Positions 911 through 1,604 of a stretch of 38,159 bases of DNA are shown one piece after another. The notes under the pieces are model-generated. The model saw only the letters and a list, made by a program, of their open reading frames with translations, made no database searches and was not told the DNA's origin. Both the position numbers and the translations under genes were made by a program. This DNA comes from Chlamydiia bacterium (lineage in GTDB: Bacteria > Chlamydiota > Chlamydiia > Chlamydiales > Parachlamydiaceae): NCBI GenBank assembly GCA_038257035.1, contig JBBSJT010000007.1, forward strand, positions 1-38,159, written 5' to 3'. Numbering within the stretch: position 1 is the first letter of the stretch; every line of letters starts with the position of its first letter.

Positions 911-1604
911 TACCGTTGTGGATGCTTTTTTTACCGCGAAGACCGCGAAGAAAGACGCGAAGAAGCGCGCTAACGCGCGACAAGAAGTAAGAAGAAGCAA
1001 GAAGAAGCGCAGCTTATGCACGGTGAAGAAGAATGTAAAAAAAATTCTGTTAAAAGAAAGTTCTTTAGATTAGTATGTAAGCCAAATTATGGAGTTTATA
1101 TGGAATTATTAGTAGCTGATAAATTGGATCAGGATACAGAGACGCTAATTAAAGTTATCATTGGGGCTGCTATAGATGTGCATCGCGAGCTTGGACCTGG
1201 TTATTTTGAAAAAGTCTACGAGCAAGCTATGGCATTAGAGCTAAGATCACGAGGTTTATCATTTGCAATGCAAGTTCCTGTGGCCGTTTGCTATAAAGGT
1301 GAAAAAATTCATGGTCAGATTTTGGATATGGTTGTCGAAGGAAAGGTTATTTTGGAATTAAAATCTGTGGAGATGCTTTTACAAGTTCATGAGGCTCAAA
1401 TAATTTCTTATCTTAAATCAACAGAAATACCAGTGGGATTATTAATAAATTTCAAGGAAAAGTGGGTTAAAGATGGTATCAAGCGGTTTATCCATAGCAA
1501 GAGTTAATTATCTCTCTTCATCGCGGCATAAGCCGCGCTTCTTCTTAGCTTCTTCGCGTCTTTCTTCGCGTTCTTCGCGGTAAAAAAAGGTAAAAGAATG
1601 TGTA
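911..1604. mobile_element. Inverted-repeat element copy 1 (CGCGAAG family), enclosing a GxxExxY gene; candidate autonomous copy
   Basis: Left arm 926-~1030 (tttttttaccgcgaagaccgcgaagaaagacgcgaagaagc...aagaagaagcgcagcttatgcacggtgaag) matches the reverse complement of right arm ~1515-1588 (apart from a ~30-nt insert in the left arm); single CDS between them; TA at 911 and 1603. Confidence 0.75.
1100..1507 (+). CDS. GxxExxY protein (PD-(D/E)xK nuclease superfamily), 135 aa
   Basis: AIDVHRELGPGYFEKVYEQAM signature and LDMVVEGKVILELKSV (D...ExK) motif; GGAG at 1091-1094 before ATG 1100, so the track start at 1016 (inside the repeat arm) is probably too long. Confidence 0.92.
   Translation: MELLVADKLDQDTETLIKVIIGAAIDVHRELGPGYFEKVYEQAMALELRSRGLSFAMQVPVAVCYKGEKIHGQILDMVVEGKVILELKSVEMLLQVHEAQIISYLKSTEIPVGLLINFKEKWVKDGIKRFIHSKS

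Follow-up and report, generated by a model that had tools for sequence, protein, structure and literature searches.

This work describes a palindromic element that carries an intact GxxExxY gene in its loop, found in a 38,159-nucleotide (nt) stretch of DNA from a Chlamydiia bacterium of the family Parachlamydiaceae (GenBank assembly GCA_038257035.1, contig JBBSJT010000007.1, positions 1 to 38,159). The whole stretch is referred to here as the window, and the element lies at 925-1589 within it. It is the gene-bearing member of a repeat-plus-enzyme unit, and some hundred hairpin copies that share its arms but lack the gene are scattered across the genome. Gene and arms form one evolutionary unit with many gene-less copies, and this unit is conserved without a conventional mobility enzyme. 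We give roughly even chances to the reading that the unit is a partnership comparable to that of REPINs (doublets of repetitive extragenic palindromic [REP] sequences) and RAYTs (REP-associated tyrosine transposases), built on a PD-(D/E)xK nuclease that would read the words of the arms. The initial annotation of this DNA had proposed that the GxxExxY protein is the dedicated enzyme of the surrounding repeats. The unity of gene and arms, with many gene-less copies, held up under analysis, but the arms proved to be phased arrays of a heptamer rather than REP-type hairpins or plain terminal repeats.

In the window scan, 925-1589 was recovered as a 665-bp palindrome whose best-paired arms are separated by 581 nt, an interval that holds a single open reading frame (ORF; 1100-1507, plus strand). 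Its 135-residue product matches PF13366 (E value of 1e-40; 139.2 bits against a curated cutoff of 22) and TIGR04256, "GxxExxY protein" (E value of 1.3e-40; 138.4 bits against a curated cutoff of 35). Across an alignment of 17 sequences, G34, E37, D76, E86, and K88 never vary, and the conservation of Y40 is 90% or higher. All of these residues occur in the window protein, so that both G34..E37..Y40 and D76/E86/K88 are intact, as had been read from the D...ELK motif alone. An AlphaFold2 model of the protein (predicted local distance difference test score, 91.5) found structural matches that were almost all PD-(D/E)xK nucleases, including the BpuSI nuclease domain (Z score, 7.9), Cas4 SSO0001 (7.4), and Hjc (6.1). 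On the strength of this model, the protein is predicted to adopt the PD-(D/E)xK (restriction-endonuclease-like) fold, the superfamily to which the initial annotation had assigned it. Since all structural Z scores fall below 8, no specific relative can be named. A PDB sequence search with the window protein matched no solved structure, a Foldseek search returned nothing at an E value of ≤0.001, and a PHROGs search gave no match. PADLOC gave only weak Cas4-like matches, confined to the second GxxExxY gene of the genome (E value of ∼0.001).

The family is large. A search with the window protein retrieved 19,473 cluster representatives (50% identity) at an E value of ≤0.001 and 4,997 at ≤1e-10; the source names of close homologues include Simkania and "Chlamydiae bacterium." Among the 150 best cluster representatives, 28 (P0121 to P0130 among them) are 200 to 390 residues long and match the query in two stretches, which may reflect either tandem GxxExxY domains or two adjacent cassettes read through. 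A passage from a review gives the function of GxxExxY proteins as "Unknown," and a literature search, including passages of PMC8934634 and PMC3424549, gave no description of repeats around GxxExxY genes.

The arms of 925-1589 are modular. From the outside inward, each consists of an outer unit (ATACCG... plus a T run), ACC followed by three CGCGAAG words, and two mini-hairpin modules. On the left (plus strand), the outer module at 910-932 (ATACCGTTGTGGATGC and a T run) represents a degenerate form of the unit ACCGCTAAGrGGGAyy-T5-9 that precedes most arms of the CGCGAAG family. This consensus was taken position by position from 87 elements, and an nhmmer scan with the outer unit gave 111 matches, 99 of which are followed by a CGCGAAG array. 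The left word array (933-962, plus strand) comprises ACC and then CGCGAAG at 935-941, 944-950, and 956-962, with periods of 9 and 12 nt. It is followed by the inner left arm (963-1022, plus strand), which combines a CGCGC-loop-GCGCG mini-hairpin and a stretch rich in AAG with a CGCAGC-TTAT hairpin module whose 3′ half has decayed. A leader from the arm to the start codon (1023-1099, plus strand) has GGAG at 1091-1094, and a promoter scan of 800-1800 found no sigma-70-like site. Beyond the gene, the inner right arm (1512-1547, minus strand) includes an intact mini-hairpin, CGCGGC-ATAA-GCCGCG, at 1522-1537. The right word array (1548-1589, minus strand) carries CGCGAAG on the minus strand at 1552-1558, 1564-1570, and 1573-1579, followed by GGT and an A run. 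Positions 925-966 pair with 1548-1589 over 42 nt at 98% complementarity, and 999-1019 pair with 1526-1546 at 95%. The initial annotation had placed the stop codon within about 10 nt of the right arm, which is roughly right: the stop occupies 1505-1507, the arm begins at about 1512, and its strongly paired part begins at 1526. Both mini-hairpin modules recur in gene-less copies, with their order changed. We rejected the idea that the outer ACCGCTAAG module is an independent hairpin hit by an insertion, as the outer arm unit is common to the CGCGAAG and CGCAAAG families.

Within the window, CGCGAAG occurs 48 times against 2.35 expected, a count reached in none of 100 shuffles. As had been noticed at the outset, these matches form eight inverted pairs, of which only 925-1589 encloses a gene. 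The seven gene-less palindromes are 166 to 275 bp long and lie at 6208-6423 (with outer ACCGCTAAG modules), 7735-7995 (outer modules also present), 13046-13241, 17353-17618, 20367-20641 (81-nt arms, 93% complementary; an internal module is common to this copy and the preceding one), 28159-28398 (left array partly decayed), and 31509-31674 (the shortest, with 60-nt arms that are 95% complementary). The copy at 13046-13241 folds as a near-perfect hairpin, at −115.7 kcal/mol compared to −48.9 for shuffled sequences (z score, −17.9). A gene-less copy of a sister family, built on the word CGCAAAG, lies at 23706-23842, and its gene-bearing relative is on contig C17.

The window is contig C7 of a 2.37-Mb assembly of 210 contigs (36% G+C, 95.8% complete). 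Across this assembly, ACCGCGAAG left ends number 130 and right ends 131. Adjacent ends make up 90 pairs; all but one of these (89) span 69 to 358 bp, and the remaining pair, of 640 bp, is the gene-bearing element. In a separate census by word, an element was defined as a plus arm followed by a minus arm with the same word. This census gave 130 elements: 88 with CGCGAAG (one gene-bearing and 87 gene-less), 28 with CGCAAAG, 13 with CGCAGAG, and 1 with CACGAAG. A further 22 arm groups carry the word CACAGAG without pairing cleanly. Lengths above 400 bp are reached by only two elements in the census. The one that is not 925-1589 (C37:14411-14850) has CGCAGAG arms and a 386-nt interior with a small ORF that is not a GxxExxY gene; the ORF has a hydrophobic, signal-like start and seems to run on in another frame.

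The genome contains exactly two PF13366 matches, and both genes touch word arrays, each of a different word. In the case of the second gene (C17:14838-15215), a decayed CGCAAAG arm abuts the ATG (alignment score of 34 compared to a shuffle maximum of 23), and a complete CGCAAAG element begins ∼25 nt after the stop codon. The genome therefore appears to hold two cognate pairs, GxxExxY-1 with CGCGAAG (88 elements) and GxxExxY-2 with CGCAAAG (28 elements).

To follow the association beyond this genome, 80 GxxExxY loci were gathered from one scan of species-representative genomes (named records), covering Bacteroidota, Planctomycetota, Chloroflexota, Cyanobacteria, Verrucomicrobiota, Acidobacteriota, Proteobacteria, and others; together with 30 chlamydial loci, these make up a set of 110. 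Phased arrays of a 7-nt word are present at 96 of the 110 loci, in chlamydiae and at least ten other phyla, and 52 loci have them on both sides of the gene. In general form, the array consists of the word CRCNRAG repeated with a period of 8 to 9 nt (242 of 271 intervals), usually as three words (91 of 148 arrays), with ACC on the outside. When the 200 nt upstream of the gene were compared with the 200 nt downstream, 48 of 79 testable loci had an inverted repeat at a z score of ≥5, and in nearly all of these repeats (A)ACC leads into a 7-nt word present two to four times. Inverted-repeat scores of ≥30 were found for 47 of 78 GxxExxY genes compared to 3 of 55 distant control ORFs from the same loci, and the same phased 7-mer stood on both sides at 30 of 80 GxxExxY loci compared to none of 26 controls. 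The possibility raised by the initial annotation that homologues generally lack flanking arms thus proved false. Gene and arms travel together across at least eleven phyla.

At the loci from other phyla, the neighbors of the cassette are housekeeping genes, often in operons, and the same operon junctions recur from one record to another: amino-acid kinase/aminotransferase at L068, L078, and L141, gatA/gatB at L117, L122, and L123, methionine aminopeptidase/methyltransferase at L112, L128, and L131, and isopropylmalate-type dehydrogenase/PrpD at L079 and L114. In a Brasilonema locus (L095), a GC-rich insert of ∼48 nt separates words 1 and 2 and is the same in both arms, apparently a second small repeat nested symmetrically within them.

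Within the order Chlamydiales, PF13366 was scored in 120 genomes and the triple-word pattern (CRCRRAG ×3) in 121; these genomes are interrelated, and the counts are descriptive rather than statistical. PF13366 was found in 40 of the 120 genomes and triple-word arrays in 38 of the 121. Crossing the two gave 30 genomes with both, 8 with arrays only, 10 with the gene only (three of these having gene fragments only), and 72 with neither. The gene is present in 16 of the 19 genomes with at least 10 triple-word matches, so that the concern that the repeat might be abundant in genomes without the gene is mostly unfounded. Most flanks of the 30 chlamydial loci carry inverted arms of CACAGAG, CGCAGAG, CGCAAAG, or CGCGAAG words. 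All three close relatives of the window protein carry GCGAAG-type words: L186 and L187, which are the two loci found by a metagenome scan for close relatives (77 to 79% identity), and L028 (64%). Array numbers vary within the genus g48 (161 in G099, 1 in G044, and none in G076), where genes are 66 to 74% identical in DNA and too diverged for element junctions to be aligned.

One chlamydial genome (G011) links gene-less to gene-bearing elements. In its 270-bp gene-less elements, the final ∼170 nt of the gene are retained at ∼85% identity, and these 3′ remnants mark them as internal-deletion derivatives of the gene-bearing unit. Such derivatives also stand in tandem in this genome, ∼350 bp apart (L067, C44:93400-95100; C30:90266-90758 and 108913-109754), each with the C-terminal third of the GxxExxY gene and a TAG stop codon.

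What is preserved within an element is above all the word. Comparing left arms with the reverse complement of right arms gave an agreement of 91.3% for the free word positions and of 60.4% (81 of 134) for the spacers. Of 419 word pairs taken from a single arm, 249 (59%) match exactly, a share that drops to 14% when the words come from separate loci. Because arrays were found by the word pattern, these figures are biased toward word identity, and the free positions are those left open in that pattern. Of the 79 gene-less CGCGAAG elements open to comparison, 37 have an identical first spacer in the two arms, where 17.4 would be expected, and none of 2,000 shuffles reached 37. The arms of one element are therefore related to each other, and the feature strongly kept between them is the word. 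Word retention of this kind is what a protein that reads sequence would impose, and not what a plain stem requires.

A possible mechanism can be outlined on these grounds. The nuclease would bind the phased words on both arms, as duplex or as extruded hairpin, and may nick or cut near the ACC/GGT borders. Cutting could then maintain or spread the gene-less copies in trans, as RAYTs do for REPINs. Host repair or ligation would have to complete the reaction because a hydrolytic nuclease cannot rejoin DNA. In its broadest form, the proposal is that GxxExxY cassettes represent a new class of prokaryotic mobile or self-maintaining DNA. The sole protein of this class would be a hydrolytic PD-(D/E)xK nuclease of ∼130 residues that reads phased 7-nt words, with the word changeable over evolution, and that mobilizes gene-less hairpins in trans with no DDE, HUH, tyrosine, serine, or reverse-transcriptase enzyme. 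We hold this broad form to be possible but rather doubtful.

Several observations weigh against a nuclease that reads and spreads the words. PD-(D/E)xK enzymes hydrolyze DNA and cannot rejoin it, which leaves integration unexplained; the activity of the GxxExxY protein, its cut sites, and the mode of spread are inferred. Gene-bearing copies that are both numerous and nearly identical turned up only in genomes such as G109 and G011, in which the cassette is carried by an element of the IS5 type, an insertion sequence (IS); the gene-bearing unit was thus never seen multiplying on its own. The gene-less CGCGAAG copies of this genome hold no gene remnant, its only PF13366 matches being the two genes, and derivation of short copies from the long one by internal deletion is seen in G011 and not here. 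No target-site duplication was detected, direct 2- to 4-nt matches outside the runs occurring in 13 of 71 elements and equally in 13 of 71 shuffled-partner controls, although this test is weak as the true edge of the element is uncertain. For CGCAGAG (13 elements) and CACAGAG (22 arm groups), the assembly contains no cognate GxxExxY gene. Three of the 19 array-rich chlamydial genomes (G024, G100, and G104) lack the gene. Arrays are missing altogether from 14 of the 110 loci and are confined to one side of the gene in another 44.

The correspondence between protein and word is likewise partial. Word labels cluster on the protein tree, requiring 38 changes when 300 label shuffles averaged 59.4 and never fell below 53, on a tree that is poorly resolved (62 of 107 inner branches open). 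Coinheritance of gene and arms would produce the clustering just as specific recognition would. One cyanobacterial protein clade with good support has three words, CGCCAAG, CGCAGAG, and CGCGAAG, which rules against a simple code of one protein for one word, and we do not claim such a code. Independent contrasts between residues and words were limited to two supported pairs and had no power.

Three other explanations were weighed against a word-reading nuclease. In one, the arms are a cis-acting structure for the transcript or locus of the gene itself, such as a long stem around the mRNA that provides stability, insulation from adjacent operons, or a site for RNase III processing; on this view, the gene-less hairpins would count as REP-like, and the nuclease would have a different substrate, for instance in repair or defense. 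Such a role would fit the closeness of arrays to the gene, as arrays lie at a median of 31 nt upstream and 18 nt downstream of it, many of them at <10 nt, so that they often abut start or stop codons and the transcript must include them. It would also fit the very stable folding of the elements and the presence of cassettes inside housekeeping operons that they leave unbroken. Gene-less elements favor gaps between convergent genes (38 of 111 classifiable elements compared to 225 of 1,491 background ORF pairs), a bias also known for REP-type elements. However, a plain stem gives no reason for arm spacers to differ at 40% of positions while free word positions agree at 91%, and it leaves unexplained why three phased direct words with an outer ACC accompany one protein family across many phyla. 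No Rfam family could be assigned to the elements, which gave only sub-threshold, miRNA-like hairpin matches. The T run precedes the hairpin and the A run follows it, the wrong side on either strand, and a role as an intrinsic terminator was rejected on this basis. We regard such a cis-acting role as unlikely. A second explanation reverses the order of events: the hairpins came first and spread by other means, with GxxExxY as a homing-type parasite; its product would cut hairpins that lack the gene, and repair would then copy the gene into their loops. PD-(D/E)xK homing endonucleases exist, the gene always occupies the loop position between arms that are also found without it, the gene-less copies in this genome hold no gene remnants, and some genomes have arrays and no gene. 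Yet efficient homing would fill many sites, whereas only 1 of 88 CGCGAAG elements is filled. The gene-less copies of G011 derive from filled ones, as shown by their 3′ gene remnants, and most cassettes in other phyla sit at unique operon sites, with simple three-word arms that resemble part of the cassette. Homing thus seems to us an improbable origin.

The third explanation holds that a conventional transposase, of the IS5-type DDE or the Y1/HUH kind, moves the arms, with GxxExxY as a passenger and the gene-less copies as miniature inverted-repeat transposable elements (MITEs) or REPINs of that transposase. Its strongest case is found in other chlamydiae. In G109, 16 of 17 fetched loci share a 1,564-bp unit at 99.8 to 99.9% identity, in the order terminal repeat, array, IS5-family transposase (NF033579, 289 bits), GxxExxY, array, terminal repeat. 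At L037 (356-1919), the transposase and GxxExxY genes of such a unit stand back to back, with the word arrays just inside the IS terminal repeats. The same IS end lies beside the GxxExxY gene of L007 (G006), and in G011 an array-gene-array unit is placed between the stop codon of another IS transposase and an IS end. Here, though, the arms bracket GxxExxY only and not the transposase. The genome of the window has a single DDE_Tnp_1 locus, three rve loci, and about seven Y1 (IS200/RAYT-like) loci, the last of which favor this explanation, but no word array comes closer than 2.1 kb to any of these genes. REP-like hairpins of other kinds flank the Y1 genes, each gene with its own, so that co-resident Y1/REP systems provide an internal contrast to the GxxExxY arrays. 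Neither of the two elements of >400 bp among the 130 holds a transposase, although a fragmented assembly of 210 contigs that is 95.8% complete leaves room for an unassembled IS. At the loci from other phyla, none of the 150 flank ORFs scanned (of 158) belongs to a transposase or integrase family. The concern that a DDE or HUH enzyme might carry the same ends therefore does not apply in this genome, but it stands for those chlamydiae in which the cassette lies inside IS5-type elements. Overall, we consider it very unlikely that a conventional transposase accounts for the arms.

With the proposed GxxExxY nuclease partnership in mind, the cassettes can be compared to known systems. In REPIN-RAYT systems, REP doublets are kept by a REP-associated tyrosine transposase, and gene-less hairpin doublets are tens to hundreds of times more common than the enzyme gene. 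The present elements are alike in having few enzyme genes flanked by inverted copies of a dispersed repeat (1 gene-bearing compared to 87 gene-less CGCGAAG elements) and, apparently, several cognate enzyme/repeat pairs in one genome (CGCGAAG and CGCAAAG). They differ in that the enclosed gene encodes a PD-(D/E)xK protein of ∼130 residues (PF13366) and not an HUH Y1 transposase (PF01797), and in that the arms consist of two to four direct 7-nt words with an 8- to 9-nt period and an outer ACC, and not of single REP hairpins. MITE/IS families share the terminal inverted repeats and the many short, nonautonomous copies, which in G011 arose by internal deletion. Unlike in those families, the long copy lacks a DDE transposase, no target-site duplication was detected, and the arms are long, modular, and word based.

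Integron attC cassettes are similar in being small single ORFs that can insert between genes, with imperfect palindromes at their boundaries able to form single-strand hairpins. In the case of 925-1589, however, arms flank both sides of the ORF, there is no IntI/attI, the neighbor is a XerD equivalog, and the cargo is always one family. Rickettsia palindromic elements, Neisseria Correia elements, and pneumococcal BOX elements resemble the gene-less copies as abundant, modular intergenic palindromes of 100 to 300 bp with no known transposase; here, one gene family is tied to the repeats. TnsA of Tn7, I-Ssp6803I, and Rpn/YhgA-like nucleases use the same catalytic fold on mobile or recombining DNA. 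TnsA needs its DDE partner TnsB, and I-Ssp6803I resides in a group I intron; unlike GxxExxY genes, neither is bracketed by word arrays.

The surroundings of the cassette account for two further candidates that were rejected and for several side observations. The cassette sits between xerD, upstream, and a small ORF. The upstream gene matches TIGR02225 at 342.7 bits, above the cutoff, while integron-integrase models score far below theirs, and a functional tie to this adjacent tyrosine recombinase was dropped because the neighbor is the housekeeping XerD. A location inside an rRNA gene, as an ORF-bearing intervening sequence of 23S rRNA, was rejected in the absence of any rRNA match in the locus (L001). 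Directly upstream of the cassette, 884-901 is a half-arm of a third word type (ACCACTGAGAGCACAGAG). Elsewhere in the window, 10329-11103 is a separate inverted-repeat element that encloses a broken Y1 (IS200/RAYT-like) gene on the minus strand, with PF01797 pieces at 10608-10808 and 10805-10945, a TAG between them, and flanking nested repeats with GGTCCGAAGGACC hairpins.

The purine-rich arms are open in some frames and give rise to spurious ORFs of 51 to 139 residues that cross whole elements, at C60:6758-7130, C19:20532-20952, and six more sites and at window positions 845-1021 and 918-1073; gene callers would likely annotate such ORFs. Genome-wide, eight ORFs of 123 to 139 residues exist solely by spanning an element. 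Public Logan contigs (run X1) end at the arms, at window positions 903-969 and 1506-1639, and contain no joints; summed depth there rises from ∼5 to 8 to 247 and 80.

In practical terms, the arms break short-read assemblies, as the depth of 247 attests, and create spurious ORFs. The biological meaning is broader. GxxExxY proteins are a large orphan family, and a defined DNA partner gives them a first testable function. Closely related proteins carry different words, and this poses the question of how so small a protein would read a 7-nt word. If the word is indeed changeable over evolution, the family would represent a small, naturally retargetable DNA-recognition module. If the nuclease moves or maintains the hairpins, it would add an enzyme class to those acting on bacterial mobile DNA and would explain a widespread type of intergenic palindrome.

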